64,000 bases of DNA, from NCBI GenBank assembly GCA_964016885.1, contig OZ024743.1, positions 118,172,001 to 118,236,000 of the forward strand. The letters are read 5' to 3'. The stretch's first letter is position 1, and the number at the start of each line of letters is the position of its first letter. Of the stretch, positions 2,894 to 32,708 are shown one piece after another. Under the pieces are notes generated by a model. The model was not told the origin of the DNA and searched no databases. It saw only the letters and a list, made by a program, of their open reading frames with translations. The position numbers and the translations under genes were made by a program. This stretch comes from Eledone cirrhosa (lineage: Eukaryota).

Positions 2894-3076
2894 CACCTAT
2901 CACCCTACCTCTCTCTCTCTCTCTATAGATATATATATATATGATATATATATCACCCTACTCCTCTTTATTTATCTATCTGTGGTGTATCTTTCTATCT
3001 CTTAGAAAGATATACAAGGAGAACATATTACAAATGAATTAGATTTCTAGATAGACAGATAGATTTCTAGATTTCT

Positions 3077-3447
3077 AGATATACACATAGCTAAATAGTG
3101 AGATATATAAATAAGTAGATAGACAGATAGATATACACACAGCTAAATAGTGAGATATATAAATAAGTAGATAGACAGATAGATATACACACAGCTAAAT
3201 AGTGAGATATATAAATAAGTAGATAGACAGATAAATATACACATTGCTAAATAGTGAGATATATAAATAAGTAGATAGACAGATAAATATACACATAGCT
3301 AAATAGTGAGAGATATATATAAGTAGATAGAGAGATAGATATACACACAGCTAAATAATGAGATATATAAATAAGTAGATAGACAGATAGATATACACAT
3401 AGCTAAATAGTGAGATATATAAAAAAGTAGATAGACAGAGAGATAGA
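3077..3447. repeat. Minisatellite, 52-bp unit, about 7 copies
   Basis: AGATATACACAYAGCTAAATAGTGAGATATATAAATAAGTAGATAGACAGAT repeated with period 52 (ATACAC at 3081, 3133, 3185...). Confidence 0.95.
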
Positions 3448-3882: not shown

Positions 3883-4509
<627 letters not shown>

Positions 4510-6060
4510 CGGCACTACACTAAGAGAATACGAAGCGGTGACAGGAGCAATGATCAACCAGGAAAAGTCGGTGGGCCTGCAGCTCGGCACATGGAGAGGC
4601 AGGTCCATGCTGTCCAACAGCGTCGTCGGGCGGTGGACGGAGGGACCAGTTAAATTGTTAGAGGTCTGTTCGGTCCGGAGCTCCAGACGGACAAAAACTG
4701 GGACGATGTGACGAGCAGGGTGGCTTCTCTCACCCAGAATTGGGCGGAGAGGAGGCTATCTCTGAAAGGTCGAGCGGAGGTTGCTAACGCGTACATCGCG
4801 TCCGTCATCTACTACCGCCTGACCGTCGTGCTTTGTCCTAAGCCTCGCCTGACTGCGCTGGAGCGTTTGCTCTTTCGCTTTTTATGGAAGGGATGCGCTC
4901 CGATGGTCAGGCGTTCCATCTGTTGTCAACACCCGCTACGTGGAGGGATGGGCATGCCGTGGATAATGATGCGCAGACACACGCGCTCAGGCTACGACAC
5001 CTCCACCTCTTCCTCAACGGTGATCAGGTGTGGTCGCCGTTTGCTAGACGCGTCTTTACCCAGCTCGTCTCCTTGACGGAGCTGCAGTACTGGGTCAAGC
5101 GAACACCGAGAGGAAGCGCTTGGAGACTGGAATGTCTTCAGGCGCTCACAGCCCTCGACCAATCAGGCAATGTAATCGGTGGAAACTCCACCTCGGCGTT
5201 CTATAGAGGATTAGTGGGGGGAAAGAGCGACGACGTACTTGGGGAAACTCTAGGCGTCGACGAATATCAACTAGCCAATCTCTTCGGAATAACTTTCGGG
5301 CCGGGGCCTATGGACAACTTCCAGAAATCCCTGGTCTGGCAGTGCTACTGAGGAGCTTTGCCAGTTCGGGATAAACTCTACAGGCATGGAGGTGCCGTCA
5401 GCCTAGCATGTCCGAGATGCACGCAGTGCGACGAAACCGTCCAATGCCCGTGCATTGCTGAGTTGTGGGTTTATGTCGAACACCTGCTGTCACGTGTAGG
5501 ACGGATCCGGCTATCAGCTGAGTCCACCGTGAGGATTGCCCCGCCCTCTTGCTTTAGCCGGGAAGGGCAGGCAGTTTTTATCTGTTTGGTGGCCATGGCG
5601 AAAGAGATAGTATGGTGGACACGTTTGAAAGGGCTGAAGACGAGCACTTACCTCTTCGGTGATGCCCTGATTAACTTTTTCAAATTTCATTTGAAAAGGA
5701 AAATCAGGGTATAGAGGGAAGTGCTCTCTTCCCAGCATTTTGTTGAAAGATGGGTGAGAGACGGAAGAATGGCCGGAGTGAATGGGCCTACTCTGAGTAT
5801 GTGTCTGTAAATTAAAGGTGGAAAACTGGGATAGGGCACTTGCCCTGGTGATCAGGGTCACTGTGGTATTTTAATGGGCTTTCTCCACAAATGTCCCTCG
5901 GAAGTCTCCCCCCTATTGTGGAATTTTTCATTGTTATTTCTTTGTTACATCCTCTGTTTTTGTTTTTTACACGCAGAAATACCCATTTGTACCGTCCTGT
6001 ATTGTCCTGTACTGTCCTTAATGTCTACTTTATGTAAACCCTTGTGGTTAATAAAGAAGG

Positions 6061-6124
<64 letters not shown>
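4510..6124 (+). mobile_element. L1/Tx1-type LINE copy A (subfamily 1), 5'-truncated and decayed, with (ATT)n tail 6062-6124
   Basis: Collinear with ~10465-12058 of copy B. C-terminal ORF2 has stops and frameshifts. 3' end reads AACCCTTGTGGTTAATAAAGAAGGC(ATT)n. Confidence 0.95.
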
Positions 6125-6332
6125 GGCGACCTACGTAGTAAATCGTATCATCGTGAGCTCCGCAAAGGTTTGTTATTTCCGTTTGTTAAAAATTGTCATT
6201 TATGGAAAATTTTATTGTTAACTGTTTATAAGCGCACATACATTGTTTTCCGAAAAGGACACCCAAAAAGATTGGGGCCTTGTGCCCAAAATTTTAACTT
6301 TTATTATTATCAAAAAATTTCTTTGAAAAAAA

Positions 6333-8328
6333 ATGGCTAATTCACCTCTGCACCAAGCAGCTGAAAGCCTTCCTCACAAATTAACACCTCACACCGACAC
6401 CACCATTGTAAATGTTACTACGTTTGCCAACACTACTAAAAATGTAAGCAGTAGCAATATTTTAAATTTGTCTCAGGCAGACATTCATTTCCCGCCATTA
6501 CCAATGACTGCAGGTGTTAAAGCCTCCACCACCACCACCACCGCGACAACCACCACCCACACCACCACCGCGACAACAGAAACAAAAGAAGAAAAAAAAA
6601 AATTAACTCGTGATGTCGAAATGAAATCAAGCAAAATGGACTCTTCCCCACCAAAGACGACTGACGTCACCACCACCACAACTGAAACTAAAATTAATAT
6701 TAACACAAATAACGATAGCAACAACAACAACAATGACATTATAAAAACCACCCTCAGTTTTGCCAGAGTAGCAAAACAGTTCGAAGCATTTACGGTAACT
6801 CAGGAGGATTTAGAAAATGCCAAACAAATGGTAAAGAAAGATGGGTACAGGGTCAGCCTCACCCCCCACCTAATAAAATGGAGCATCAGCGCCTATGCAC
6901 CGTGTCGTATCGAACAATAAATGTAAAATCGCGCCGAGTGGAACGGGCACCCGAGTCCCAAATCCAAAAAGCTTTGGAACATGTGTGGGCAAGAAAAACC
7001 CACATCAGACGTGGGCAGAAGTATGGAACCGTGGACGTGTTCTTTGAAACACCAGAGGAGGCTAGAGAACACTCCATGGCCCCATTAAGAATTGACGACT
7101 TCACACTCGTCCCAAGCTATTGTGGCCAGAGACTCGTAAACATCAGGGTGACCCATGTTCCACCGGCCATCGAAATTCCCTGGCTAATAGCGGCCATCCT
7201 CGCCGGCATCGAAGCCAAAACAAAAATAATAGCAATAGCAAAAGAAAAGCAGGAGAACTGGTTCGGATCTGGGATGGAGCTCCTGATCCAAGCGGACCAA
7301 AAAAGCATTGAGGAGATCCCAGAGGTAATAGACCTCACTGACGGCAGCCACCTCACGGTAATTAACGAGTGCAGAAGACCTAGGTGTGTCGTTTGTGGTG
7401 AAGGAACCCACCTAAGGGCTTTCTGCCCTCAGGCTAAAAGGTTGAGGCCACCTCTCCTACCCACCCCAGTGACACAACCATCAACACCACCAGTAGCAGA
7501 GATGGCAGCAACAACTGTAGCAGCAACAACAGAAGCAACTATAACAGCAACAATCCCAGCAACAGTAGCAAAAGCAACACCACCACTACCACCACCAGCA
7601 AAACCAACACCACCACCACCCAACGCTTCAGAACTAGCACCAGAGCCTACACCATCCACGACGCCACAACCAAAACTAACGCCTGTGGAGGATTTTCCAC
7701 TCCCCGGCCTATCACAACTGGAGACAGATTGTGACGACGAGGAGTGGGAAACGATATCCGGAAAAAAAAAAGAAACCAAAAAAGAAAAAATTCTCTTCCT
7801 TCCCCCTCCAAAAACAAAATACAGAGGGAAACAAATAAATTAAGAAAGAAAACAGTTAGGACAGATATGCCACCATCCACACCAGCATCACCAACCCCAT
7901 CAACCCAAACACCAACACCATCACCATCATTAACCCCAACACCACCATCACCTACACCACAAAAGTCACCAAAATGCGAAACAGAAACAAACCCACAACA
8001 AACGCAAACAAAACAAAACAACCAAAACGATACACACTACACAGCATTAAATTTGAACAACAAGCAATTATTACACTACATCCAACACAACACCAGCATC
8101 ACAGAAAAAGACTACACAACAACCCCAAAATTCACACCACCTCCACACATACAAATCACTCGCATCACACAGAAAACGTACATGACACTAAAAAAAAAAT
8201 TCCCCAAAGACATCGGAGACTTCCGACAAGCACTCTCCAGGAGGATTTATAAGGACATCCTTCCTGAGGAGGCCAGAAGCAGTGAAAAGGATGGAAAAAC
8301 CGTCCTTCCCCTACGAGAAGTAAGGTAA
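6333..8328 (+). pseudogene. LINE ORF1 (gag-like RNA-binding protein with zinc knuckle), frameshifted
   Basis: Pieces 6333-6920, 6878-7843 and 7744-8328. CVVCGEGTHLRAFC fits CX2CX4HX4C. RGQKYGTV is homologous to RGRQYGTV in copies C/D. Confidence 0.85.
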
Positions 8329-8362
8329 GTGGTCTTTCCCATCTTTTCCACTCCTTTTCAAC

Positions 8363-11300
8363 ATGACCTCACTCAGAATAGGCAGCATAAATGCGCGTGG
8401 CTTGGGGTCGTTATGGAAGCAGGGCCACCTGCTCAACGACCTCAGGTCACTAAACATAGATGTAGTGGCCATCAGCGAGACCAGAATCTCCGAAGCACAG
8501 GCTTTCGCACCGATCTTCGGCGGCTACGATGTGTACGCATCTCCCAGCCGTCCGGGATCGGGGGGAGGAGTTGCTGTGCTTTTTCGGAGAGGTTTGGATC
8601 TTGCCATACGGGCCATCTTCCTGGACCCAGAAGGTAAGTTGGTGGTGCTGGACGTGACCAGCGGAGACGGGCAAGCTTTCCGGTTAGTGGCCGTCTATGC
8701 CCCGACAGGAGCAGGGCGGCCTGATTTCTTCCGGCGTCTGGAGACCTTTCTTGGAACGTCCCGCTCTTTAGTGTTAGTGGGCGACTGGAACGGGATCTTA
8801 GATGCACGCTGGGATTGTGTGGGATTAGTGGATAGGGAAGGAGGGTGCAAGAGTCTCACCAACCTGCTCAGACGTTTTGAACTGTCTGACAAGTACCGAA
8901 TGGATTTCCCGAATGTACCAATGTGGACTTGGACAAATCGCATAGGGTCATCCAGATCATATCTAGATAGAATATGTTGTAGGGAAATAGATATGTCTAG
9001 CATAGGCTGTCCACAATTCAAGATAGTCAGCTACACGGACCACAAATTCGTGATCTGTGTGCTTGACTTAGATAGGCTTCATAGACGAGGACCCGGCTAC
9101 TGGAAGCTAAACGCGTCCTTACCAGCGCGCAAGGCCTACAGAGACCGGATTAGCGAACTAGTTAAGCGGGCGTTGACGGGGCCATCGTCAACAACAAGTG
9201 GTGGTTTGCTCTGAAAAGAGCAATTAGAATAGAGTCCATTAGGTTTAGTAAGACTTTAGCAATAGAGAAAAATAGAGCAGAGGGAGAATTAGTTAGAAAA
9301 TTAGATGAGGCGCTCAGCAAAGGCATCGCGACCGACGTACTTGCGGCGAGATTGGCCCTTGACCAATTCTTCAATGCAAAGCACGAAGGATGCGTTGTCA
9401 GAGCTAGGGTGCGTGCTCTCAGACACGAGAGGACGAAAGCCGTTCAATGGGCCCGAGTGGCGGAGGCGCGTCGTGGCAACAAAGCCACGATCCGGTCTTT
9501 GGTGGACCACGACGGGCGCATGCTACTCGATCCCGGGCAAATGTGTGAAGCTTTTCAGCGACACTTCGCTCAACTGTTCGGGGCAGTGGCGGGCCGTATC
9601 GAGGGATGGGCTTTAGTGTCTACCTCGACGGACTGCCGCGGCTTTCGGCCAAGAGGCGGAGTGTTGCGAAAAGCCGATAACAACCGCTGAAGTACGGGAT
9701 GCAATGACTAGTTGCACAAGGGGTAAATCGCCTGGTTTGGATGGTCTGCCCTATGAACTTTACGTACAAATGCCAGACTTGTTCGGAGGCCTCTTGGCGG
9801 ACGTCTACTGCAACTGGCAACAGAAAGGGAGAATTCCCAGCTCTGTGAGCCGAGGAGCGGTGGCGCTGCTGAGAAAGGATCCGAACAAGGGGGATAACAT
9901 AGATAATTTTAGGCCCATAACTCTGCTAAACACAGAGTTCAAGATTTTGGCCAAGGTGCTAGCAAAGAGCTTGGCGCTTGTCGTTGGTGGTCTGGTGGGA
10001 GAGGCACAGACATGCGCCATTCCCGACAGATCCATCCACGACAACCTCCACCTCATGCGATACATCGTAGAGAGTGTAGCTAGGGAACCTGGCACGGGTG
10101 GGTCTTTGATCAATTTAGATCAGTCGAAAGCCTTCGATAGGGTCGACCATCGTTACCTAGCGGCAGTCCTGAGGGCGGCTGGCTTTGGGCCCGTCTTCAG
10201 AGGCTGGATCGATGCCATGCACAGCGACATCTGCTCTGTAGTGAGAGTGAACGGTCACCTTTCGGAACCGTTCAACATCATGCGCTCGGTCCGCCAAGGA
10301 TGTCCCCTCTCGTCCCTATTGTACGTATTGACTCTCGAGCCATTACTGCACAAACTGGAGACGTTGAGGGGGGTCCCGCGCGAACTAGGATGCGGAAGAT
10401 CCGTGTCAGCATATGCCGACGATGTCACCGTAGTGGTGTCGAACGCCAAACACATCGAGGCGATCGGCACTACACTAAGAGAATACGAAGCGGTGACAGG
10501 AGCAATGATCAACCAGGAAAAGTCAGTAGGCCTGCAGCTCGGCACCTGGAGAGGCAGGTCCATGCCGTACAACAGCGTCGTCAGACGCTGGACGGACCGA
10601 CCGGTTAAATTGCTAGGGGTCTGTTCGGTCCAGACCTCCGGACGGACAAAAACTGGGACGAGGTGACGAGCAGGGTGGCTTCTTTCACCCAGAAATGGGC
10701 TGAGAGGAAGCTATCCCTGAAAGGTCGAGCGGAGGTGGCTAACGCGTACATCGCGTCCGTCATCTACTACCGCCTGACCGTCGTACCTTGTCCTAAGCCC
10801 CGCCTGACTGCGCTGGAGCGTTTGCTCTTTCGCTTCTTGTGGAAGGGACGCGCTCCGATGGGAAGGCGGTCCATCTGCTGTCAACACCCGCTACGTGGAG
10901 GGATGGGCATGCCGTGCCTGATGATGCGCAGACACGCGCTCAGGCTACGACATCTCCACCTCTTCCTCGACGGTGATCAGGTGTGGTCGCCGTTTGCTAG
11001 ACACGTTTTCCCCCAGCTCGTCTCCTTGACGGAGCTGCAGTCCTGGGTCAAGCGAAGACCGAGAGGGAGCGCTTGGAGACTGGAATGTCTCCAGGCGCTC
11101 ACAGCCCTCGACCAATCGAGCAATGTGATCGGTGGAAACTCCACCTTGGCGTTCTATAGGGGATTAGTGGAGGAGAAGAGCGACGACGTACTTGGAGAAA
11201 CTCTAGGCGTCGACGAAAATCAACTAGCCAATCTCTTCGGAAGGACTTTCGGGCCGGGGCCTATGGACAACTTCCAGAAATCCCTGGCCTGGCAGTGCTA

Positions 11301-11778
11301 CCAGGGTGCTTTGCCAGTCCGGGATAAACTTTACAGGCATGGAGGTGCCGTCAGCCGGGCATGTCCGAGATGCGCATAGGGCGACGAAACCGTCCTGCAC
11401 GCACTCGTCCAGTGTCCGAGCATTGCTGACTTGTGGGTTTATGTCGAACACCTGCTGTCACGTGTAGGACGGATCCAGCTATCAGCTGAGTCCATCGTGA
11501 GGATTGCCCCGCCCTCTTCCTTTAGCCGGGAAGGGCAGGCAGTTTTTATCTGTCTGGTGGCCATGGCGAAATAGATAGTATGGTGGACACGTTTGAAAGG
11601 GCTGAAGACGAGCACTTACCTCTTCGGTGATGCCCTGATTAACTTTTTCAAATTTCACCTGAAAAGGAAAATCAGGGTAGAGAGGGAAGTGCTCTCTTCC
11701 CAGCATTTTGTTGAAAGATGGGTGAGAGAAGCAAGTATGGCCCGAATGAATGGGCCTACTCTGAGTATGTGTCTGTAA
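8363..11778 (+). pseudogene. LINE ORF2 (APE endonuclease, reverse transcriptase, C-terminal zinc finger), disrupted
   Basis: APE motifs SINARGL, SETR, GDWN, TDH. RT motifs KSPGLDG, QGCPLS, YADD. Frameshifts near 9180, 9610-9660 and 10620; in-frame TAG stops at 11377 and 11572. Confidence 0.95.
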
Positions 11779-12018
11779 ATTAAAGGTGGAAAACTGGGAT
11801 AGGGCACTTACCCTGGTGGTCAGGGCCACTGTGGTCTTTTAGTGGGCTTTCTCCACAAATGTCCCTCGGAAGTCTCCCCCCTATTGGGGAATTTTTCTTT
11901 ATTTTATTTCATCCTCTGTTTTTTTTACACGCAGAAATGCCCATTTGTACCGTCCTGTATTGTCCTGTACTGTCCTTAATGTCTACTTTATGTAAACCCT
12001 TGTGGTTAATAAAGAAAA

Positions 12019-12058
<40 letters not shown>

Positions 12059-12270
12059 GACGAAAGTGGATGTACGTTTTTTGAAGCTCCGTGAGTAAGC
12101 GATTTTTTGAGGATTAATTGTAGAGAATTGTTTATTTTTTGTACCGTTGAAGCATTATAAGACTTTCATTTGTATCCTGTGAAGGAATAACTCATAATAT
12201 TTGGGCCTTTTGGCCCAAATATTTGAACTTTATTTTGAAAAAAAAATAATAATTTTTTTCTCAAAAAAAC

Positions 12271-14182
12271 ATGGCGGAGCCACGCCCCCTAGAGGCGGGT
12301 CTGCTGTCGTGCAACGGCGACTTGAGCGTTGAGAGGAGAGGTGAGGCGAGGAGCGCCACCAGCACGAGTGTGAGCAGCGACAGTGCCAGCACCAACGGGC
12401 CGAGCGGCGCGGAAGTAGGTAACAGCGACAACACCAACACCAACAAGCCGAACAGCGCAGAAGGTGGTAATAGCGAGAGCACCAACAAAACAAACAGCAC
12501 AGAGAGTAATAGTAGCGACAGCAACAGCACCAACAAGGCCAACAGCACAGAGGGAAACCACGACACAGGGGAGAACAACAACAGCAATAGCAGCAGCAAC
12601 ACCAACAAGAACAACAACAGTGACAACACCAACAAGAACACTTTCGCTGCTGTGGCAGCGGCTAAAAGGAGACCATGCTACAGCATCGACTTAACCAACA
12701 GAGAGGAAAAGTTGGCCCAGGCCTGGAAAATCATAAATCAAGAGCAGACCTGGGCAAACTTAACTGTCCCGGCAGAAGCCATTGAGGCAGTGGAAAAAAG
12801 AACGGTGAATTTCAGATGCATCTCAGTAGAGACAAAGAGGGCAGCGATAATCGCCCAAGCTGACATAGAAGCCGCACTGAAATACATCAGAGAGGACACA
12901 GACTTCATAGAGAGGGGCAGGCAATACGGCACCGTTTCGGTGCTGTTCAAGTCTGAAGCCCTCGCTGTGAAGCATTCAATGACCCCTTGCAAAACCAGCA
13001 AGGTCATAATGTACCCCTCCCACATGGGAAAACGAATAGCACGTGTGCGCATTCCCAGGATTCCACCAGGACTTGATATGTGGTGGCTCCTGGGTTGCGT
13101 AATCGTGGAAGGAACGGATACAGTCCCGGTAGAGGCAACGAGAACTGCCAGGGACGACTGGTCCGGGGTTGATCTGGAGATACTGCTCCAAATCAGACCC
13201 GAAAACGTAAAAACAATCCCGGACCACATCCGCCTCCAAAACGGGAGGGTGTTGCATATAATGACTGAGGGCAAAAGGCCGCATTGTTTCCTTTGTGGGG
13301 AAACGACACACTTGCGAGCCTTCTGCCCTCAACTGCCGAAAAGCGCAAGGGGTCGAAAGATTCCACTGCTGGCGACGCCGGGACAAGGACCACCAGCAAC
13401 ACCGTCAACAATGGAACCACCAAAATTGCACACCCAGGGGGGAAACGAGGAAAGCTCTCCCATTCCCCCTCCCCCCCAAAATACACACACGAACAAGAAC
13501 ATAAACACTCACTCAGATACAAACACGCTCACAGCCACAGACCCCTCATCCTCCAGCAGTGAAGATGAGGGAAAACCAAAGTCCCCCAAAATACAAAAAA
13601 CAAAACACAAAAAAAAAAAGAAATCCACAAAGCACAAACACCCCCACAAAAAAAAATACACACACCACCCACACAAACATTTTCCCCACAGCATCACCAA
13701 CACAACCACCAAAATCCCCCAAACGCAAACAAGCTAAACAGACACAAGAACAAATAGACACACAAACATCAGAAACTACAGACACCCCACCCACAACAAA
13801 CGCAGACACAATAGAAACAACACTAACAAAGCTATCACCACCACAATCACACGAACAAATAAAACCCGAGCAACAAAACATTAAAAACTTCGTGCTTGCC
13901 AGAAGGGCCAACAAGGAATTGATGGCCCATGTAGCACGAAGCACAAACATCGAAAAAGACGGGGAAACATTTGAAGCGAGCACATTTCGCGTACCAGATA
14001 ATTTGCTTCTGATGCGAATGTCGCTCGCTTCATACAAAGAAATTCGAAAGAGCTTTCCTCGGGATGTGGGAACCCCGAACGTAAAACCCACGTCAAGACT
14101 ATTAAAGGGGTTCCCAAAAGAAACCCCACAAACCATGGAGGTCGAACCACCCGACCTTCACAAGACCCCGGAAGGTAAGTAA
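12271..14182 (+). CDS. LINE ORF1 (about 636 aa if repaired); one frameshift in an A-run near 13610
   Basis: ORFs 12271-13737 and 13559-14182 overlap across poly-A runs. Zinc knuckle CFLCGETTHLRAFC; N/S/T-rich N-terminus. Confidence 0.85.
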
Positions 14183-14211
14183 ACCTTTCCTCTCCCATTC
14201 ATCCTGCCAGC

Positions 14212-17200
14212 ATGGCCATAAGAGTAGGAAGTTTAAATGTTCGTGGCCTGGGGTCGCCCTGGAAGCAAGGTCACTTGCTCAACGACCTCAGGTCACTAGG
14301 AATGGATGTAATTGCCATCAGCGAGACCAGAATTTCCGACACACGCGCACTGGCGCCGATTTTCGACGATTATCAGATCTTTGCATCTGTTAGTCGGCCG
14401 GGAATGGGAGGTGGAGTGGCTGTGCTGTTTAGGAAATGTCTGGATCTCGAGGTAAGGTCAATCTTCCGGGATCCTGACGGAAAGTTGGTGGTCCTGGACG
14501 TGAGCAATAGCGAAGGTGGTGCCTTTAGACTGGTGGCCGTCTACGCCCCTACTGGGGCCGGTCGGCCGGACTTCTTTAGGCGCCTGGAAAACTTTCTGCT
14601 TACGTCTCGCCCTTTACTGTTAATAGGGGATTGGAATGGCATCTTAGAAGCACGCTGGGATTGTGTGGGAGTATCTGATAGGAGCGGGGGGTGCAAAAGC
14701 CTCAAGTACCTGATCAGCCAGTTTCAACTGTCTGACAGGTACCGACTAGATTTCCCTAATGCGCCAGTATGGACCTGGACCAATCGCATAGGGTCATCTA
14801 GATCGTACATAGATAGGATTTTCATTAGGAAAAGAGATAGAAATAGTGTAGGATGTCCACATTTTAAAACGGTTGCCTATTCAGATCACAAGCTTGTGAT
14901 CTGTATGGTCGACCTAGATAAGACACGTAGGTTAGGACCTAGCTACTGGAAGCTAAACATGTCGTTTCCGGCACGTAAAGCTTACAGGGACCGGGTCAAC
15001 AACTTAGTTAAGCAAAAGTTGACAGGGGGGGTTGTCAACAACAGGTGGTGGGGGGCACTCAAAAGAGAGATTAGAGCAACCTCGATAGGATTTAGCAAAG
15101 AAGTAGCAATAGAGAAAAATAGAAAGGAGGAGGGGCTGATAGCTAAGTTAGACGAGGCTATTTGTAGTGGCATTGCAACAGACGTGCTAGCGGCGAGAAT
15201 GGCACTAGACCATTTCTTCAATGCGAAACACGAAGGTTGCATTGTCAGAGCTAAGGCGCGTGCTCTGAGGAACGAGGGAAGCAAAGCTGCCCGATGGGCT
15301 CGCTTTGCAGAGACGCAGCGTGGAAATAAAACCACAATTCGGTCTTTGACGGATCGAGATGGACACGAACTGAGCGATTCCAAGCAGATGTGTGAGGCCT
15401 TTCGCCAGCACTTTGCTCGATTGTTCGGGAGGATGGGTGAGTCGGAGACGGCGGCGGACTTCAGTCCCTACCTCGACGGCTTGCCACGCCTCTCGACGGC
15501 CGACGCTGAGCGCTGCGAAGAGCCGATAACATCAGCCGAAATTCAGGACGCCCTTGTCGGCTGCTCGAGTCGCAAGTCACCCGGTTTGGATGGTCTGCCC
15601 TACGAGCTTTACGTAAATATGCCAGACTTGTTCTCCGATCTCCTCGAAGCGCTCTACTGCAACTGGCAGCAGAACGGGAGCATTCCCAGTTCTGTGAGCC
15701 GTGGCGTAGTGACGCTGATAAGGAAAGACGAGAACAAGAGGGACACACTAGATAATTTCAGGCCCATAACGCTGCTCAACACAGAGTTTAAGATTTTGGC
15801 CAAGGTGTTAGCGAAAAGGTTGGCGCTTGTCGTCAAAGATTTGGTTGGGGAGGCGCAAACTTGCGCAATCCCGACCAGGTCCATACACGACAACCTCCAC
15901 CTCATGCGATACATCATAGAGAGGGTTGGGTGCAAACCTGGCTTCGGTGGGGCTCTGATCAATTTAGATCAATCGAAAGCATTCGATAGGGTCGACCATC
16001 GGTACTTGGAGGCTGTCCTCGAGGCGGCTGGCTTCGGCCCCGTCTTCAGAAGCTGGATCGCTGCAATGTACAGCGGCATCCGCTCGGTGGTCAAAGTTAA
16101 TGGCCACCTCTCGGAACCGTTTCAGATCTCTCGATCGGTCCGTCAAGGGTGCCCTCTCTCCTCACTTCTGTACGTATTGACTCTTGAGCCTCTACTGCGG
16201 AAGCTGGAGTTGTTGCAGGGCATCCCGCTCGAACCGGGACGTAGAAAGGCTGCGTCCGCTTATGCGGACGACATCACCGTGATGGTGTCGGACACCTCGG
16301 AAATCGAGGTGATCCGCACCCATTTGGAGGAATATGAAAGGTTGACGGGAGCAAAACTTAACCCGGAAAAGTCGGTGGGCTTGCAGCTCGGCACCTGGAG
16401 AGGCAAGTCCATGCCGTCCAACAGCGTCGTTGGGCGCTGGACAGACGGACCGGTAAAGTTGCTCGGGGTTTGGTTCGGACCAGACCTCCAGGTGGATAAG
16501 AATTGGGACGAGGTGACGAGCAGGATAGCCAACCTCACCCAGAAATGGGCTGAGAGAAAGCTATCACTGAAAGGGCGGGCGGAGGTGGCGAACGCGTACA
16601 TCGCGTCCGTCATCTACTACCGCCTGGCCGTCGTGCCTTGCCCCCGTCCACGCCTCGCCAATTTGGAACGGCTCCTTTTCAAATTTTTGTGGAGGGGACG
16701 GGTCCCGTTGGTGAGGCGGTCCATCTGCTGCCAGCACCCTCTTCGTGGAGGGCTGGGCATGCCGTGGCTAATGATGCGCAGACATGCGCTGAGGCTGCGA
16801 CATCTCCAGATATTTTGCCTAAACGGTGAACAGGTGTGGTCGCCGTTTGTTAGACGGGCCTTTCCGCAGCTCATCTCTTTGACTGAGCTGCAGTCCTGGG
16901 TCAAGAAGAGACCGAGACTGGGCGACTGGCATCTGGAATGTTGCCAGGCGCTCACTGCACTCTGCAAGGTGGGCAATGCGGTCAGTGGAACTTCCACTCA
17001 AGATTTCTATAGAGGATTAGTGGAGGGCAAGTGCGATGACGTACTAGGAGAGGCTCTGGGCGTCAACGAAGTAGAACTGACCAGTATGTTCCGGAGGACT
17101 TTCGAGCCGGGGACGATGGATAACTTCCAGAAATCCCTCGCTTGGCAGTGCTACCGGGGGGCGCTGCCGGTTCGGGATAAACTCTACAGGCACGGAAGTG

Positions 17201-17631
17201 CTGTCAGACGAACCTGCCCGAGATGCGCGCAGAGCGACGAAACCGTTCTGCACGCACTCGTCCAGTGTCCGTGCATTGCTGACTTGTGGGGTTATGTCGA
17301 ACAGCTATTGTCGCGTGTAGAACGGATCCGGCTATCGTCCGAGTCCATAGTGAAGATTGACCCGCCGCCTTCTTTTGGTCAGGAAGGGCAGGCAATTTTC
17401 CTCTGCCTGGTGGCAGTAGCGAAAGAGGTTGCATGGTGGACCAGGTTGAAAGGACTGAAGACAGACACTTTTCTCTTCGGCCAATCCCTCATCAACTTCT
17501 TCAAGTTTCACTTGGAAAGGAAGGTGAGGGTGGAGAGAGAAGTGCTGCCCCCCAGTACATTTACTGAAAGGTGGGTGAATGTGGCGAGAATGGCCCGCGT
17601 GAGTGGGCCTACTCTGATCATGCGCCTGTAG
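14212..17631 (+). CDS. LINE ORF2, intact 1139 aa: APE endonuclease, reverse transcriptase, C-terminal CCHC zinc finger
   Basis: Motifs SLNVRGL, SETR, GDWN, SDH, WKLN, KSPGLDG, FRPITLLN, KAFDRV, QGCPLS, YADD and CPRC...ETVLHALVQC. Confidence 0.98.
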   Translation: MAIRVGSLNVRGLGSPWKQGHLLNDLRSLGMDVIAISETRISDTRALAPIFDDYQIFASVSRPGMGGGVAVLFRKCLDLEVRSIFRDPDGKLVVLDVSNSEGGAFRLVAVYAPTGAGRPDFFRRLENFLLTSRPLLLIGDWNGILEARWDCVGVSDRSGGCKSLKYLISQFQLSDRYRLDFPNAPVWTWTNRIGSSRSYIDRIFIRKRDRNSVGCPHFKTVAYSDHKLVICMVDLDKTRRLGPSYWKLNMSFPARKAYRDRVNNLVKQKLTGGVVNNRWWGALKREIRATSIGFSKEVAIEKNRKEEGLIAKLDEAICSGIATDVLAARMALDHFFNAKHEGCIVRAKARALRNEGSKAARWARFAETQRGNKTTIRSLTDRDGHELSDSKQMCEAFRQHFARLFGRMGESETAADFSPYLDGLPRLSTADAERCEEPITSAEIQDALVGCSSRKSPGLDGLPYELYVNMPDLFSDLLEALYCNWQQNGSIPSSVSRGVVTLIRKDENKRDTLDNFRPITLLNTEFKILAKVLAKRLALVVKDLVGEAQTCAIPTRSIHDNLHLMRYIIERVGCKPGFGGALINLDQSKAFDRVDHRYLEAVLEAAGFGPVFRSWIAAMYSGIRSVVKVNGHLSEPFQISRSVRQGCPLSSLLYVLTLEPLLRKLELLQGIPLEPGRRKAASAYADDITVMVSDTSEIEVIRTHLEEYERLTGAKLNPEKSVGLQLGTWRGKSMPSNSVVGRWTDGPVKLLGVWFGPDLQVDKNWDEVTSRIANLTQKWAERKLSLKGRAEVANAYIASVIYYRLAVVPCPRPRLANLERLLFKFLWRGRVPLVRRSICCQHPLRGGLGMPWLMMRRHALRLRHLQIFCLNGEQVWSPFVRRAFPQLISLTELQSWVKKRPRLGDWHLECCQALTALCKVGNAVSGTSTQDFYRGLVEGKCDDVLGEALGVNEVELTSMFRRTFEPGTMDNFQKSLAWQCYRGALPVRDKLYRHGSAVRRTCPRCAQSDETVLHALVQCPCIADLWGYVEQLLSRVERIRLSSESIVKIDPPPSFGQEGQAIFLCLVAVAKEVAWWTRLKGLKTDTFLFGQSLINFFKFHLERKVRVEREVLPPSTFTERWVNVARMARVSGPTLIMRL

Positions 17632-18122
17632 GCTGGTGAATTCGAGAAGGAGAGGGGTGCCCTTCCCGGGTGCCCTAGGAGCGTCGGGTGGCTCAGGACT
17701 GGTGGGGTGCTTGAGTCAACCCTGGGTGGTGATCCCTCTTATTGGGGAACTTTCATTGTTGTATTTTTATTGTTATTTTGTTTTTGTTTTTTTTGTTATT
17801 TATACTTACTCGATCTCTATGTAAACCCCCACTGTCCCTGTCTATTGTGTTGTCCCCTATATGTCGGCCCTTGTGGCCAATAAATGAAATCATTATTATT
17901 ATTATTATTATTGACGAAAGTGGATGTACGTTTTTTGAAGCTCCGTGAGTAAGCAATTTTTGAGGATTAATTGTAGAGAATTGTTTATTTTTTGTACCGC
18001 TGAAGCATTATAAGACATTAATTTGTATCCTGTGAAGGAATAACTCATAATATTTGGGCCTTTTGGCCCAAATATTTGAACTTTATTTTGAAAAAAAATA
18101 ATAATTTTTTTCTCAAAAAAAC

Positions 18123-20038
18123 ATGGCGGAGCCACGCCCCCTAGAGGCGGGTCTGCTGTCGTGCAACGGCGACTTGAGCGTTGAGAGGAGAGGTGAGGCG
18201 AGGAGCGCCACCAGCACGAATGTGAGCAGCGACAGTGCCAGCACCAACGGGCCGAGCGGCGCGGAAGGTGGTAACAGCGACAACACCAACACCAACAAGC
18301 CGAACAGCGCAGAAGGTGGTAATAACGAGAGCACCAACAAAACGAACAGCACAGAGAGTAATAGTAGCGACAGCAGCAGCACCAACAAGGCCAACAGCAC
18401 AGAAGGTAACCACGACACAGGGGAGAACAACAACAGCAATAGCAGCAGCAACACCAACAAGAACAACAACAGTGACAACACCAACAAGAACACTTTCGCT
18501 GCTGTGGCAGCGGCTAAAAGGAGACCATGCTACAGCATCGACTTAACCAACAGAGAGGAAAAGTTGGCCCAGGCCTGGAAAATCATAAATCAAGAGCAGA
18601 CCTGGGCAAACTTAACTGTCCCGGCAGAAGCCATTGAGGCAGTGGAAAAAAGAACGGTGCATTTCAGATGCATCTCAGTAGAGACAAAGAGGGCAGCGAT
18701 AATCGCCCAAGCTGACATAGAAGCCGCACTGAAATACATCAGAGAGGACACAGACTTCATAGAGAGGGGCAGGCAATACGGCACCGTTTCGGTGCTGTTC
18801 AAGTCTGAAGCCCTCGCTGTGAAGCATTCAATGACCCCTTGCAAAACCAGCAAGGTCATAATGTACCCCTCCCACATGGGAAAACGAATAGCACGTGTGC
18901 GCATTCCCAGGATTCCACCAGGACTTGATATGTGGTGGCTCCTGGGTTGCGTAATCGTGGAAGGAACGGATACAGTCCCGGTAGAGGCAACGAGAACTGC
19001 CAGGGACGACTGGTCCGGGGTTGATCTGGAGATACTGCTCCAAATCAGACCCGAAAACGTAAAAACAATCCCGGACCACATCCGCCTCCAAAACGGGAGG
19101 GTGTTGCATATAATGACTGAGGGCAAAAGGCCGCATTGTTTCCTTTGTGGGGAAACGACACACTTGCGAGCCTTCTGCCCTCAACTGCCGAAAAGCGCAA
19201 GGGGTCGAAAGATTCCACTGCTGGCGACGCCGGGACAAGGACCACCAGCAACACCGTCAACAATGGAACCACCAAAATTGCACACCCAGGGGGGAAACGA
19301 GGAAAGCTCTCCCATTCCCCCTCCCCCCCAAAATACACACACGAACAAGAACATAAACACTCACTCAGACACAAACACGCTCACAGCCACAGACCCCTCA
19401 TCCTCCAGCAGTGAAGATGAGGGAAAACCAAAGTCCCCCAAAATACAAAAAACAAAACACAAAAAAAAAAGAAATCCACAAAGCACAAACACCCCCACAA
19501 AAAAAAAAAAAATACACACACCACCCACACAAACATTTTCCCCACAGCATCACCAACACAACCACCAAAATCCCCCAAACGCAAACAAGCTAAACAGACA
19601 CAAGAACAAATAGACACACAAACATCAGAAACTACAGACACCCCACCCACAACAAACGCAGACACAATAGAAACAACACTAACAAAGCTATCACCACCAC
19701 AATCACACGAACAAATAAAACCCGAGCAACAAAACATTAAAAACTTCGTGCTTGCCAGAAGGGCCAACAAGGAATTGATGGCCCATGTAGCACGAAGCAC
19801 AAACATCGAAAAAGACGGGGAAACATTTGAAGCGAGCACATTTCGCGTACCAGATAATTTGCTTCTGATGCGAATGTCGCTCGCTTCATACAAAGAAATT
19901 CGAAAGAGCTTTCCTCGGGATGTGGGAACCCCGAACGTAAAACCCACGTCAAGACTATTAAAGGGGTTCCCAAAAGAAACCCCACAAACCATGGAGGTCG
20001 AACCACCCGACCTTCACAAGACCCCGGAAGGTAAGTAA
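18123..20038 (+). CDS. LINE ORF1; one frameshift in the A-run near 19500
   Basis: ORF 18123-19613 plus the downstream frame ending at 20038; CCHC knuckle present. Confidence 0.85.
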
Positions 20039-20067
20039 ACCTTTCCTCTCCCATTCATCCTGCCAGC

Positions 20068-23000
20068 ATGGCCATAAGAGTAGGAAGTTTAAATGTTCGT
20101 GGCCTGGGGTCGCCCTGGAAGCAAGGTCACTTGCTCAACGACCTCAGGTCACTAGGAATGGATGTAATTGCCATCAGCGAGACCAGAATATCCGACACAC
20201 GCGCACTGGCGCCGATTTTCGACGATTATCAGATCTTTGCATCTGTTAGTCGGCCGGGAATGGGAGGTGGAGTGGCTGTGCTGTTTAGGAAATGTCTGGA
20301 TCTCGAGGTAAGGTCAATCTTCCGGGATCCTGACGGAAAGTTGGTGGTCCTGGACGTGAGCAATAGCGAAGGTGGTGCCTTTAGACTGGTGGCCGTCTAC
20401 GCCCCTACTGGGGCCGGTCGGCCGGACTTCTTTAGGCGCCTGGAAAACTTTCTGCTTACGTCTCGCCCTTTACTGTTAATAGGGGATTGGAATGGCATCT
20501 TAGAAGCACGCTGGGATTGTGTGGGAGTATCTGATAGGAGCGGGGGGTGCAAAAGCCTCAAGTACCTGATCAGCCAGTTTCAACTGTCTGACAGGTACCG
20601 ACTAGATTTCCCTAATGCGCCAGTATGGACCTGGACCAATCGCATAGGGTCATCTAGATCGTACATAGATAGGATTTTCATTAGGAAAAGAGATAGAAAT
20701 AGTGTAGGATGTCCACATTTTAAAACGGTTGCCTATTCAGATCACAAGCTTGTGATCTGTATGGTCGACCTAGATAAGACACGTAGGTTAGGACCTAGCT
20801 ACTGGAAGCTAAACATGTCGTTTCCGGCACGTAAAGCTTACAGGGACCGGGTCAACAACTTAGTTAAGCAAAAGTTGACAGGGGGGGTTGTCAACAACAG
20901 GTGGTGGGGGGCACTCAAAAGAGAGATTAGAGCAACCTCGATAGGATTTAGCAAAGAAGTAGCAATAGAGAAAAATAGAAAGGAGGAGGGGCTGATAGCT
21001 AAGTTAGACGAGGCTATTTGTAGTGGCATTGCAACAGACGTGCTAGCGGCGAGAATGGCACTAGACCATTTCTTCAATGCGAAACACGAAGGTTGCATTG
21101 TCAGAGCTAAGGCGCGTGCTCTGAGGAACGAGGGAACCAAAGCTGCCCGATGGGCTCGCTTTGCAGAGACGCAGCGTGGAAATAAAACCACAATTCGGTC
21201 TTTGACGGATCGAGATGGACACGAACTGAGCGATTCCAAGCAGATGTGTGAGGCCTTTCGCCAGCACTTTGCTCGATTGTTCGGGAGGATGGGTGAGTCG
21301 GAGACGGCGGCGGACTTCAGTCCCTACCTCGACGGCTTGCCACGCCTCTCGACGGCCGACGCTGAGCGCTGCGAAGAGCCGATAACATCAGCCGAAATTC
21401 AGGACGCCCTTGTCGGCTGCTCGAGTCGCAAGTCACCCGGTTTGGATGGTCTGCCCTACGAGCTTTACGTAAATATGCCAGACTTGTTCTCCGATCTCCT
21501 CGAAGCGCTCTACTGCAACTGGCAGCAGAACGGGAGCATTCCCAGTTCTGTGAGCCGTGGCGTAGTGACGCTGATAAGGAAAGACGAGAACAAGAGGGAC
21601 ACACTAGATAATTTCAGGCCCATAACCCTGCTCAACACAGAGTTTAAGATTTTGGCCAAGGTGTTAGCGAAAAGGTTGGCGCTTGTCGTCAAAGATTTGG
21701 TTGGGGAGGCGCAAACTTGCGCAATCCCGACCAGGTCCATACACGACAACCTCCACCTCATGCGATACATCATAGAGAGGGTTGGGTGCAAACCTGGCTT
21801 CGGTGGGGCTCTGATCAATTTAGATCAATCGAAAGCATTCGATAGGGTCGACCATCGGTACTTGGAGGCTGTCCTCGAGGCGGCTGGCTTCGGCCCCGTC
21901 TTCAGAAGCTGGATCGCTGCAATGTACAGCGGCATCCGCTCGGTGGTCAAAGTTAATGGCCACCTCTCGGAACCGTTTCAGATCTCTCGATCGGTCCGTC
22001 AAGGGTGCCCTCTCTCCTCACTTCTGTACGTATTGACTCTTGAGCCTCTACTGCGGAAGCTGGAGTTGTTGCAGGGCATCCCGCTCGAACCGGGACGTAG
22101 AAAGGCTGCGTCCGCTTATGCGGACGACATCACCGTGATGGTGTCGGACACCTCGGAAATCGAGGTGATCCGCACCCATTTGGAGGAATATGAAAGGTTG
22201 ACGGGAGCAAAACTTAACCCGGAAAAGTCGGTGGGCTTGCAGCTCGGCACCTGGAGAGGCAAGTCCATGCCGTCCAACAGCGTCGTTGGGCGCTGGACAG
22301 ACGGACCGGTAAAGTTGCTCGGGGTTTGGTTCGGACCAGACCTCCAGGTGGATAAGAATTGGGACGAGGTGACGAGCAGGATAGCCAACCTCACCCAGAA
22401 ATGGGCTGAGAGAAAGCTATCACTGAAAGGGCGGGCGGAGGTGGCGAACGCGTACATCGCGTCCGTCATCTACTACCGCCTGACCGTCGTGCCTTGCCCC
22501 CGTCCACGCCTCGCCAATTTGGAACGGCTCCTTTTCAAATTTTTGTGGAGGGGACGGGTCCCGTTGGTGAGGCGGTCCATCTGCTGCCAGCACCCTCTTC
22601 GTGGAGGGCTGGGCATGCCGTGGCTAATGATGCGCAGACATGCGCTGAGGCTGCGACATCTCCAGATATTTTGCCTAAACGGTGAACAGGTGTGGTCGCC
22701 GTTTGTTAGACGGGCCTTTCCGCAGCTCATCTCTTTGACTGAGCTGCAGTCCTGGGTCAAGAAGAGACCGAGACTGGGCGACTGGCATCTGGAATGTTGC
22801 CAGGCGCTCACTGCACTCTGCAAGGCGGGCAATGCGGTCAGTGGAACTTCCACTCAAGATTTCTATAGAGGATTAGTGGAGGGCAAGTGCGATGACGTAC
22901 TAGGAGAGGCTCTGGGCGTCAACGAAGTAGAACTGACCAGTATGTTCCGGAGGACTTTCGAGCCGGGGACGATGGATAACTTCCAGAAATCCCTCGCTTG

Positions 23001-23487
23001 GCAGTGCTACCGGGGGGCGCTGCCGGTTCGGGATAAACTCTACAGGCACGGAAGTGCTGTCAGACGAACCTGCCCGAGATGCGCGCAGAGCGACGAAACC
23101 GTTCTGCACGCACTCGTCCAGTGTCCGTGCATTGCTGACTTGTGGGGTTATGTCGAACAGCTATTGTCGCGTGTAGAACGGATCCGGCTATCGTCCGAGT
23201 CCATAGTGAAGATTGACCCGCCGCCTTCTTTTGGTCAGGAAGGGCAGGCAATTTTCCTCTGCCTGGTGGCAGTAGCGAAAGAGGTTGCATGGTGGACCAG
23301 GTTGAAAGGACTGAAGACAGACACTTTTCTCTTCGGCCAATCCCTCATCAACTTCTTCAAGTTTCACTTGGAAAGGAAGGTGAGGGTGGAGAGAGAAGTG
23401 CTGCCCCCCAGTACATTTACTGAAAGGTGGGTGAATGTGGCGAGAATGGCCCGCGTGAGTGGGCCTACTCTGATCATGCGCCTGTAG
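20068..23487 (+). CDS. LINE ORF2, intact 1139 aa (APE-RT-zinc finger)
   Basis: Same motifs as 14212-17631. I see three amino-acid differences (S/T, A/T, V/A). Confidence 0.98.
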   Translation: MAIRVGSLNVRGLGSPWKQGHLLNDLRSLGMDVIAISETRISDTRALAPIFDDYQIFASVSRPGMGGGVAVLFRKCLDLEVRSIFRDPDGKLVVLDVSNSEGGAFRLVAVYAPTGAGRPDFFRRLENFLLTSRPLLLIGDWNGILEARWDCVGVSDRSGGCKSLKYLISQFQLSDRYRLDFPNAPVWTWTNRIGSSRSYIDRIFIRKRDRNSVGCPHFKTVAYSDHKLVICMVDLDKTRRLGPSYWKLNMSFPARKAYRDRVNNLVKQKLTGGVVNNRWWGALKREIRATSIGFSKEVAIEKNRKEEGLIAKLDEAICSGIATDVLAARMALDHFFNAKHEGCIVRAKARALRNEGTKAARWARFAETQRGNKTTIRSLTDRDGHELSDSKQMCEAFRQHFARLFGRMGESETAADFSPYLDGLPRLSTADAERCEEPITSAEIQDALVGCSSRKSPGLDGLPYELYVNMPDLFSDLLEALYCNWQQNGSIPSSVSRGVVTLIRKDENKRDTLDNFRPITLLNTEFKILAKVLAKRLALVVKDLVGEAQTCAIPTRSIHDNLHLMRYIIERVGCKPGFGGALINLDQSKAFDRVDHRYLEAVLEAAGFGPVFRSWIAAMYSGIRSVVKVNGHLSEPFQISRSVRQGCPLSSLLYVLTLEPLLRKLELLQGIPLEPGRRKAASAYADDITVMVSDTSEIEVIRTHLEEYERLTGAKLNPEKSVGLQLGTWRGKSMPSNSVVGRWTDGPVKLLGVWFGPDLQVDKNWDEVTSRIANLTQKWAERKLSLKGRAEVANAYIASVIYYRLTVVPCPRPRLANLERLLFKFLWRGRVPLVRRSICCQHPLRGGLGMPWLMMRRHALRLRHLQIFCLNGEQVWSPFVRRAFPQLISLTELQSWVKKRPRLGDWHLECCQALTALCKAGNAVSGTSTQDFYRGLVEGKCDDVLGEALGVNEVELTSMFRRTFEPGTMDNFQKSLAWQCYRGALPVRDKLYRHGSAVRRTCPRCAQSDETVLHALVQCPCIADLWGYVEQLLSRVERIRLSSESIVKIDPPPSFGQEGQAIFLCLVAVAKEVAWWTRLKGLKTDTFLFGQSLINFFKFHLERKVRVEREVLPPSTFTERWVNVARMARVSGPTLIMRL

Positions 23488-23760
23488 GCTGGTGAATTCG
23501 AGAAGGAGAGGGGTGCCCTTCCCGGGTGCCCTAGGAGCGTCGGGTGGCTCAGGACTGGTGGGGTGCTTGAGTCAACCCTGGGTGGTGATCCCTCTTATTG
23601 GGGAACTTTCATTGTTGTATTTTTATTGTTATTTTGTTTTTGTTTTTTTGTTATTTATACTTACTCGATCTCTATGTAAACCCCCACTGTCCCTGTCTAT
23701 TGTGTTGTCCCCTATATGTCGGCCCTTGTGGCCAATAAATGAAATCATTATTATTATTAT

Positions 23761-23761
<1 letters not shown>

Positions 23762-23799
<38 letters not shown>

Positions 23800-23836
23800 C
23801 ATCATCATTATCATCATCATCATCAGCAGCAGCAGC

Positions 23837-23892
<56 letters not shown>

Positions 23893-23962
23893 GGGTAGTG
23901 GTAGTAGCAGCAGCACCAGCAGCAGCAGCAGTAGTAGTAGTAGTAGTAGTAGCAGCAGCAGC
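23762..23962. repeat. Compound (AGT)n/(ATC)n/(AGC)n microsatellite, right flank of the LINE array
   Basis: Direct reading. Confidence 0.97.
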
Positions 23963-27774: not shown

Positions 27775-28633
27775 GACTGGCATCTGGAATGTTGCCAGGA
27801 ATTCACTGTCCTCTACCAGGCTGGCAATGCGGTCAATGGAACTTCCACTCTCGAGTTCAATAGAGGTTCCGTGGTGGGCAAGTACGATGACGCACACGGA
27901 GAGGCTCTGGGCGTCGACAAAGTCGAACTGACCAGTCTATTCCAGAGGACTTTCGAGCGGGAGACGAAGGATAACTTCCAAAAATCCCTCGCTTGGCGGT
28001 GTTACCGGGGGACACTGCCGGTTCGAGATAAACTCTACAGGGACGGAAGTGCTGTCAGATCGAACAGCTGTTGTTGCTTGTAGAACGGATGCGGCTATCA
28101 GCTAAGTCCATAGTAAAGATCGACCCGCCACCTTCTTTTGGCCAGGAAGTGCAGGTAATTTTTTATGTCTGGTGTCAGTAGCGAAAGAGGTTGTGTGGTA
28201 GACCAAGTTGAAAGGACTGAAGACAGACAGTTTCCTCTTCGGCCAAGTCCTCGTCAACTTTTTCAAGTTTCACTTGGAAAGGAAGGTGAGGGTGGAGAGC
28301 GAAGTGTTGCCCCCAGTACACTTGCTAAAAGGTTGGTGAATGTCGCGAGAATGGCCCGTGTGAGTGGGCCTACTCTGATCATGCGCCTGTAGACTAGTGA
28401 ATTTGAGGAGGAGAGGAGTGCCCTTGAATCGTCGGGTGGTTCAGGATTGGTGGGGTACCTGAGTCACCTCTGGGTGGTTATCCCTCATATTGGGGAATTT
28501 TCATTGTTGTATTTTTCTCGCTTATTGTTATTGTTTTCCTATTTTTTACTCGATTTTTGTGTAAAACCCCCACTGTCACCTTCTATTGTATTATCCCCTA
28601 TATGTCGGCCTGTGTGGCCTAGAAATGAAACTG
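27775..28633 (+). mobile_element. Old 5'-truncated L1/Tx1 subfamily-2 copy with a 16-bp TSD
   Basis: Homologous to 16924-17891 with an internal deletion. TSD TTATYACACCCATTTT at 27759-27774 and 28634-28649. Confidence 0.9.
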
Positions 28634-30345: not shown

Positions 30346-31224
30346 ATTATTTGAAAGATATTTGGTTGCTATTTCTAGCTGGTTGAGGGGCCATTGAGAG
30401 ATTTAATCTATTGGTATAACAACTATAATTGGTTGTTATTAATATTGTTTTGCTGACTGTCATTATTGTTCTACAGCAGATGATGGTGATGGCTATAAAG
30501 GATTTGTTGTGTTGCTGTTGTTTATATTGTTGTTTGTGCTGTCGTTGATATTGCGTTGTTTGTAATGTTTGATAATGCTGCTGCTATTTTTATTGTTCGT
30601 TGTTGTTTTTGGTTTTATTTTCTGTATTTTTCATTTATTGTTAGGGCTATTGTTTTTGTTGTTTTCGTTTTAGTTGTTATTTGATTCTAGTTTTGTTGTT
30701 TTTATTGTTGTTTAACTGCTGCTAGCATTGTTGTTGTTGGCCATGTTTATTATTAGTTTGTTTGTTTTTATTCTTTTGTTCTTTTATCTATCTATATATA
30801 TTTGTTGTTGTTCTTTTTGTTGTTGATCATGATGACATTGTTGTTACAAGATATTGTAATGTCATTTTATCATATTGTATTATATTGTATTGTATTGTAC
30901 TTTATATAATTTCCATAAACAATTGGTCCCATCGAGAAATGAACTATATATGCCTTGCTCCACCTGGTGCATTTTGTTAGCCAATGTAGGCACAGATGGG
31001 AGTTTCACGCTTTTCTAGGCAACCAAGTGATTCTCTTTAAGCACTTTTTCCTCTATATTGCGCTAGAGACAGACTAGCCTTTTCAGGGCCATCTTAGCCG
31101 CTCAAAATGTTAAACAAACAAAATGTATAAAAACAAATAATGGAAGAAAAATAATAGATAAACAATAAACAAAGAAATAAAAAAAATATGTTGAGTGTTA
31201 AGCAGGAAAATGGAGAAAATGCAA

Positions 31225-32520: not shown

Positions 32521-32708
32521 AAAGAAGTCTCTAATAATGACCGGATAGCCAGAGGGTGTAGGTCAATGGATCACTTTAGTTAATAAGATCTATTTTAATT
32601 TGGTTTGGTTTAGACCGCACATTATCTAATTCTGATTGGAGTAAAGGACATAGAGAAAACAACATAAACACATACACACGCACTGATATATATATACCTC
32701 TACTCTTT

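Follow-up and report, generated by a model that had tools for sequence, protein, structure and literature searches.

Among retrotransposons of the Tx1 clade, Kibi targets (TC)n, Koshi (TTC)n and crocodilian families (TTCC)n or (TTTC)n; the same source, in its accessible part, uses more than 20% of flanks as its criterion for target preference and depicts tandem SINEU-3 copies around a duplication (PMC4494074). Dong elements are found in TAA repeats (PMC3812793, accessible in part). Tandem arrays can arise by double insertion, in which an insertion keeps its target and makes a new one and dimers then expand; the available portion of that work covers a Drosophila R1 array, jockey and P dimers and a hobo expansion (10.1101/158386), and tandem Utopia elements have also been reported (PMC4640811, again in part). 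In Octopus vulgaris, 13 L1-Tx1 and 5 Dong-R4 families have been recently active, according to the sections available (PMC13282606). Here we analyse four retrotransposons, A to D, arranged head to tail at positions 4510–23761 of a 64,000-nucleotide stretch of the Eledone cirrhosa genome (assembly GCA_964016885.1, genome size 3.0 Gb; contig OZ024743.1, positions 118,172,001–118,236,000, forward strand), which we call the window and number from its first letter. The array probably arose by separate insertions into (ATT)n, with 15–18 bp duplicated each time and later families piling in on either side.

All four elements, at the coordinates and on the strand proposed in an earlier sequence-only reading, share one orientation and are separated by nothing but ATT triplets, in runs of 63, 39 and 21 bp (21, 13 and 7 units). 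The flanks of related copies are similarly constrained. An exact 20-mer from the start of C occurs 324 times genome-wide, and 318 of these occurrences lie immediately behind (ATT)3, which directly precedes only 0.03–0.04% of background positions; the earlier suggestion of sequence-specific L1-group elements with non-random flanks is upheld. Full-length B and C starts (the best 30 of 40 scored per family, two of them the window's own) lie behind (ATT)n in 60 of 60 cases, in the phase ATT|G. Downstream, ATT comes next in 59 of 60 fetched 3' ends (three of which are the window's own), and the remaining one reads GTT and then ATT. Truncated copies show an ATT run upstream in 15 of 25 cases, against a background of 0.3–0.4%; this set consists of 34 rows minus six full-length E-type copies and three subfamily or internal boundaries, and 14 of the 15 were flagged by script, with L136 added by eye. 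Both proportions, 318/324 and 15/25, far exceed the 20% of flanks used for Tx1 elements.

The sequence-only reading had placed the array inside an (AGT)n microsatellite; we reject (AGT)n as the target. The first non-ATT triplet after the run is AGT in 5 of 38 C loci and GTT in 8 of 38, and loci whose 3' flank becomes AGT still have ATT on the 5' side. Given that C starts lie behind ATT and that AGT follows at so few loci, (ATT)n is the target of the array families, next to which the AGT tract lies as a compound neighbour. The copy at 57770, which had been cited as also ending in (AGT)n, does have that repeat at its end, but ATTATTTTC comes before it, so it does not abut AGT directly.

The elements resemble Kibi, Koshi and the crocodilian Tx1 families, as far as these are described in the accessible text, in being elements with an apurinic/apyrimidinic endonuclease-like (APE) domain and a reverse transcriptase (RT) that are specific for short pyrimidine-rich microsatellites; they differ in target, which is (TC)n, (TTC)n and (TTCC)n/(TTTC)n there and (ATT)n here (PMC4494074; PMC3812793). 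Assignment to the Kibi/Koshi lineage by target was rejected because the flanks are (ATT)n rather than (TC)n or (TTC)n; a few tracts are compound with upstream CTT. Dong shares the microsatellite class, TAA/ATT, in the part of its description available (PMC3812793). The array elements differ from it in having an N-terminal APE domain and in carrying ATT on the sense strand. Dong is an R4-clade element with a C-terminal restriction-like endonuclease, and the presence of APE where such an endonuclease would be expected led us to reject the Dong/R4 clade. One segment of the APE domain, WTWTNRIGSSRSY, is identical in B and C although the domains as a whole share 72% protein identity. The corresponding APE loop steers target choice, and in our alignment the segment coincides with the stretch altered in the LR1 variant of L1. 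Two other dispersed repeats with internal ATT runs are repeatedly hit (L220–L249; L140, L147 and L150), and the right-flank motif of one of them occurs 1,279 times.

We then considered whether the ATT runs are copied from the target or made by the element. Of 98 C copies, 68 have the same 15 or 18 bp on both flanks. At locus L327–L328, the impure 18-mer ATTATTATTATCATTATT stands after the end of a short interspersed element (SINE), between two C copies and once more after the second copy; its threefold occurrence implies an 18-bp duplication, no net tail and renewed use of the target. The two copies are 26 substitutions apart, with the younger one upstream. A truncated SINE at L144 has an impure 18-bp repeat on both flanks, and an old relic in the window (27775–28630) has an imperfect flank repeat of roughly 16 bp. 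At one recurring site, 30 empty loci contain 7 units at the median, and three singly filled copies have 10, 13 and 15, with six more units per extra element. A target-site duplication of 15–18 bp accounts for the ATT run better than an element-made tail, and targets would consequently arise on both sides. Of the earlier claim that each insertion leaves an (ATT)n tail as the target for the next, the use of the run as the next target survives; its manufacture by the element explains the data less well.

We consider it unlikely that each element adds its own (ATT)n tail as the next target, with arrays growing downstream. ATT does continue every 3' end examined, and older B-type elements lie upstream of C in the window and in arrays such as that at C1:181.4 Mb. 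A B tail leads to a C start at least 11 times, and of 36 C-type-to-B junctions, 30 were examined and none has a young C upstream. Against a tail of this kind stand the impure 18-mer locus, which has no net tail, 3' runs of only 2 units, and a young C lying upstream of family E, described below, at five loci in which the E copies are the more diverged.

The direction of growth also argues against it. Decay does fall from left to right in the window, as the sequence-only reading observed: the nearest sampled relative is 4.9% away for A and 1.7% for B, giving the age order A, B, then C/D (relatives were picked by likeness to B and C, so that A's value is an upper bound). Downstream addition as a rule was not borne out. 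Among 41 C–C junctions, the older copy is upstream in 8, downstream in 12, tied in 13 and near-identical to its neighbour in 8 (P = 0.5), and in a 10-copy array the youngest copies lie at the 5' end, an age gradient opposite to that of the window; we therefore reject downstream-only growth. Random tract choice would yield the window's own order one time in three, because A offered a 3' target only. Growth is two-directional genome-wide, with some local duplication. Co-mobilisation of dimers was rejected as well, since no haplotype pair is common to different arrays (seven arrays and the window).

The youngest pair, C and D, are 99.5% identical, with 28 differing columns of which 19 are substitutions. 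Over 5.8 kb, the nearest sampled relatives of each are dispersed copies (8 substitutions from C, 3 from D), whereas C and D are 19–20 substitutions from each other; they are separate insertions from different sublineages, and the same distances led us to reject a local C–D duplication. Most C/D differences fall within the first 750 bp. C copies combine variant sites of different sublineages in mosaic fashion, a pattern that suggests gene conversion or template switching.

Arrays of this type are common in the genome. A common 3' motif recovers 22,625 related 3' ends genome-wide, compared with 102 for a control, and V(ATT)5 tracts number 67,123 (tracts with a preceding T excluded). Of the first 100 such tracts listed, 16 sit behind a 3' end of the array group, indicating that the group supplies much of its own target. 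The tandem excess and the multi-family landing pads foreseen from the window alone both hold: the first 100 listed 3' ends have 21 same-strand and 2 opposite-strand neighbours within 7 kb (2.8 expected), and 9 of 36 junctions join different families (P = 0.11), a frequency that needs no more than mass action to explain it. Seventeen of the first 100 listed C starts lie behind another C. These include the 10-copy array (L200–L207, contig 1, 423.36–423.42 Mb), which consists of full-length C copies with (ATT)5 at every junction and whose last copy runs into a short, inverted piece of the family's own 3' end. A near-copy of the window's array, with two B-type and three C elements followed by AGT, is also present on contig 1. 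In two pairs of B copies (L162/L163 and L188/L189), which lie 24 kb and 426 kb apart, the flanks are identical; these pairs are segmental or assembly duplicates.

Together, these data suggest the following course of events, whose steps follow target-primed reverse transcription. The APE domain would nick the (AAT)n strand; the RT would bind a CUUGU hairpin at the RNA 3' end and prime at that point, with no poly(A) tail involved; and a cut in the other strand 15–18 bases on would produce the duplication. Each insertion would thereby probably duplicate about 15–18 bases of the ATT run and leave a target on both sides, and later ATT-seeking elements of any family would be likely to land upstream or downstream. 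In the window, A probably came first, entering the AGT tract at an imperfect site or a short ATT seed, and would have left a target on its 3' side only; B, C and D would have followed. Some arrays elsewhere would have grown further by local duplication.

Several observations weigh against this account. Pure tracts cannot separate a tail from a duplication, and among 98 copies the impure duplication is seen at one locus only; 12 other copies have a 3' run that is impure within 15 bp and a 5' run of pure ATT. One double insertion has 6 units at the junction and 4 on each outer side, as an element-made tail would also allow. No ATT run lies upstream of 10 of the 25 truncated copies, A included. 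Closest relatives adjoin at 13 of 41 C–C junctions, and such junctions number about 45 of 324, or about 30 without likely local duplicates, where 3–4.5 are expected. Finally, reads and contigs from four runs over window positions 4380–12500 (restriction-site-associated DNA included) break or skip at ATT runs and show pile-up from other copies, and no read in them spans a junction.

The impure copies raise the question of an RNA-borne leader. Copies with an impure 3' and a pure 5' run reflect a shorter duplication or an overwritten 5' copy. Both these copies and the 6-unit junction would be explained if the duplication were shorter or if the full-length RNA carried an (AUU)n leader. Taken to its full extent, the leader would account for the ATT ahead of full-length copies, with tandems made in one event through template jumping or read-through, a proposal that we find hardly credible. 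It fits the pure 5' runs that face impure 3' runs and the contrast between full-length starts, 98% of which are in exact ATT|G phase, and truncated ones, of which 60% have ATT in variable phase (Fisher P = 3e-9), a contrast that later deletions in truncated copies could inflate. Yet truncated copies, unable to carry a leader, are still found in ATT much more often than background positions, the ages of neighbours are up to 5% apart, and no haplotype pair is repeated at different arrays. Targeting may be supplemented by a leader, which cannot, however, stand in for it.

The C–C junctions bear on a further explanation, namely that C–D and other same-family neighbours stem from local duplication, unequal exchange or assembly error. 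Two or fewer substitutions at 8 of the 41 junctions, the adjoining closest relatives, the junction excess and the lack of spanning reads would all suit it. We nevertheless judge it very improbable, given that C and D are each nearer to other copies than to one another, that variant sites of C recur in the dispersed copies L136, L146 and L149, and that the A–B and B–C junctions would be left unexplained. With separate insertion into (ATT)n as the preferred reading, the excess of C–C junctions, roughly 7-fold or greater over random tract choice, means that plain mass action is incomplete. C-type-to-C junctions of 4–7 units occur 50 times genome-wide, with a young C upstream in 27 of 30 examined. 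Both C and E begin with GA, and B begins with GG. The C–C and C–E pattern might alternatively come from hot sites or from exchange between copies.

A bolder synthesis, which we offer tentatively and with more doubt than conviction, is that an L1-group lineage that lacks poly(A) and recognises a hairpin has given rise to much of its host's complement of ATT microsatellites, mobilises a major SINE and favours the ATT run ahead of its own 5' end (ATT|GA), perhaps via an (AUU)n leader; through repeated insertion at dispersed sites, it would then grow arrays of full-length copies that can reach ten or more. If true, this would be growth much like that of telomeric retrotransposons at chromosome ends.

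The identity of the elements was approached through their open reading frames (ORFs). ORF2 matches PF03372, PF00078 and PF13966, all above cut-off and in the expected domain order, and among solved structures it scores 197 bits with human L1 ORF2 and 81 with R2, a coarse comparison as only L1 and R2 are solved. These matches place the elements in the L1 group of non-LTR retrotransposons. ORF1 of both B and C contains a CX2CX4HX4C knuckle, and atlas matches of 0.90–0.93 to zf-CCHC and ZCCHC3-like RNA-binding clusters serve as a lead; a Pfam search of ORF1 returned no RNA recognition motif (RRM). A type I ORF1, with RRM and CCHC knuckle, is consistent with Tx1 (PMC5203782, in its accessible part). 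ORF1 of the array elements fits this description, with the knuckle found directly and the RRM suggested by the atlas lead. A homologue search gave 42 proteins with 37–78% identity and no named Tx1 among them, and we regard the elements as Tx1-like by ORF1 type and target preference, not by tree. Features of mammalian-type L1 were not seen, with no poly(A) in 60 3' ends and no Transposase_22 Pfam match for ORF1. Human LINE-1 is the best solved-structure match of ORF2; the array elements differ from it in lacking poly(A) and in having a CCHC-type ORF1, a strict target and a conserved 3' hairpin. Family E (L343–L348, L166, L177, L178 and L198) has an ORF2 that is 94–97% like that of B from B position 2157 on, together with its own 5' untranslated region (UTR) and ORF1, representing a 5' module swap; its ORF2 is open in L343 and L344.

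All array elements end in a CUUGU-loop hairpin, AATAAA and an ATT run, without poly(A). The hairpin reads AACC-CTTGT-GGTT in A (6037–6049) and B (11995–12007), and its stem is GGCC/GGCC in C (17866–17878, + strand, GGCC-CTTGT-GGCC followed by AATAAA) and D (23721–23733). The four stem pairs are kept in 86–96% of 57 distinct LINE contexts, and the compensated stem switch may be a single lineage event. At two loci, Rfam returned nothing at gathering level. An abundant SINE-like element has the same loop on a 3-bp stem, kept in 90–98% of 49 contexts, and sits in ATT runs; it has a tRNA-type box and ends in GGC-CTTGT-GCC and then ATT (L143, L132, L133, L144, L136 just 3' of C, and L327:900–1056). 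Its shared 3' end suggests that it is likely to be mobilised by the array elements.

The (ATT)n target is also common to an R2-like family of the restriction-endonuclease type on the opposite strand. The ATT run meets the 3' end of this family head-on in 17 of 79 loci (L126:7609–9900, − strand, and 16 others). The family scores 110 bits with R2 and 50 with L1, shows a visible PD..D..K motif and ends in (AAT)n, and its truncated 5' ends also adjoin the repeat; it is a candidate for the Dong/R4 clade.

The general mechanism is already known, because double insertion by site-specific elements has been published (10.1101/158386, accessible portion). The likeness to those tandems extends to head-to-tail copies, a duplicated target between them, multiplication of the target and later unequal exchange (10.1101/158386, same portion). 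A duplicated target between independently inserted copies is what we found at L327–L328 (the 18-mer) and with the C and D sublineages. The array differs from those tandems in its dispersed triplet target, in having several families take part together with a SINE and a family on the opposite strand, and in the many loci involved. Octopus vulgaris has young L1-Tx1 families in a genome of similar size, and the available sections of that report contain no target or array analysis for them (PMC13282606). Neither a Tx1–SINE pair nor an ATT target appears in the accessible parts of PMC3747384, PMC4824008 and PMC9004415. The literature searched, with Repbase, Dfam and supplements outside its scope, held no (ATT)n-specific Tx1; this does not show absence from print, and (ATT)n is apparently undescribed as a target for a Tx1-like group. 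With the present system, (ATT)n joins the list of targets of Tx1-like APE endonucleases, a single microsatellite is seen to serve two unrelated types of endonuclease that use it from opposite strands, and an abundant SINE gains a likely partner. The system's youth makes target choice, tail versus duplication and the dimer-to-satellite step testable. Nested insertions shape both the annotation of repeats and any markers based on ATT microsatellites in this genome, which call for caution.

In the window, all on the + strand, the array block is flanked on both sides by compound (AGT/AGC)n microsatellites, as had been noted, at 3883–4509 on the left (without any ATTATT) and 23762–23962 on the right. 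ORF reading bore out the description of A as truncated, B as disrupted and C and D as having an open ORF2. Element A (4510–6061), the oldest, corresponds to the final 1.55 kb of a B-type element, comprising the 3' part of ORF2 and the 3' UTR; it begins at B position 4341 and is 92% identical to B. Beyond (ATT)21 (6062–6124) lies full-length B (6125–12019), with ORF1 from 6333 and ORF2 from 8363; both are broken by frameshifts or stops, and the CCHC knuckle, APE and RT are still recognisable. ORF2 is the sole region common to B and C (76.6% DNA identity). Beyond (ATT)13 (12020–12058) lies the young, full-length C (12059–17891). Its ORF1 (12271–14182) has the CX2CX4HX4C knuckle, RRM-like domains by the atlas lead and an A-run frameshift, and its ORF2 (14212–17631, 1139 aa) encodes APE endonuclease, RT and a C-terminal zinc motif, with catalytic motifs present. 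(ATT)7 (17892–17912) separates C from D (17913–23746), which is full length and the youngest; its ORF1, from 18123, is frameshifted, its ORF2 (20068–23487) is open and 1139 aa long like that of C, and (ATT)5 (23747–23761) forms its 3' target copy. Counted from ATG, ORF1 spans 488 and 496 aa in C and D because of A-run frameshifts, compared with 636 aa in 54 of 98 copies; both frameshifts are possibly homopolymer sequencing errors. Both ORFs are open in 64 of 98 sampled C copies.

Other features of the window are minor. The 5' UTR of C contains a long perfect stem (12193–12226, −20.2 kcal/mol), and that of B a motif, GGGC-CTTGT-GCCC (6272–6290), that echoes the 3' hairpin. Directly left of the AGT tract is a 52-bp minisatellite (3076–3445, 7 copies, 94% matches). 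Decayed relatives of C (68–87%) lie at 27775–28630 (+), 44240–46053 (+) and 57771–59253 (−). The first two bear ATT at their truncated 5' edge, and the second is followed by a SINE and then (AAT)13. Positions 31000–32600 were considered as a related ORF1 and rejected because they have no BLAST match to the array elements; the surrounding 30500–32600 is of low complexity, a long and degenerate stretch rich in GGT/GTT whose short ORFs are spurious.

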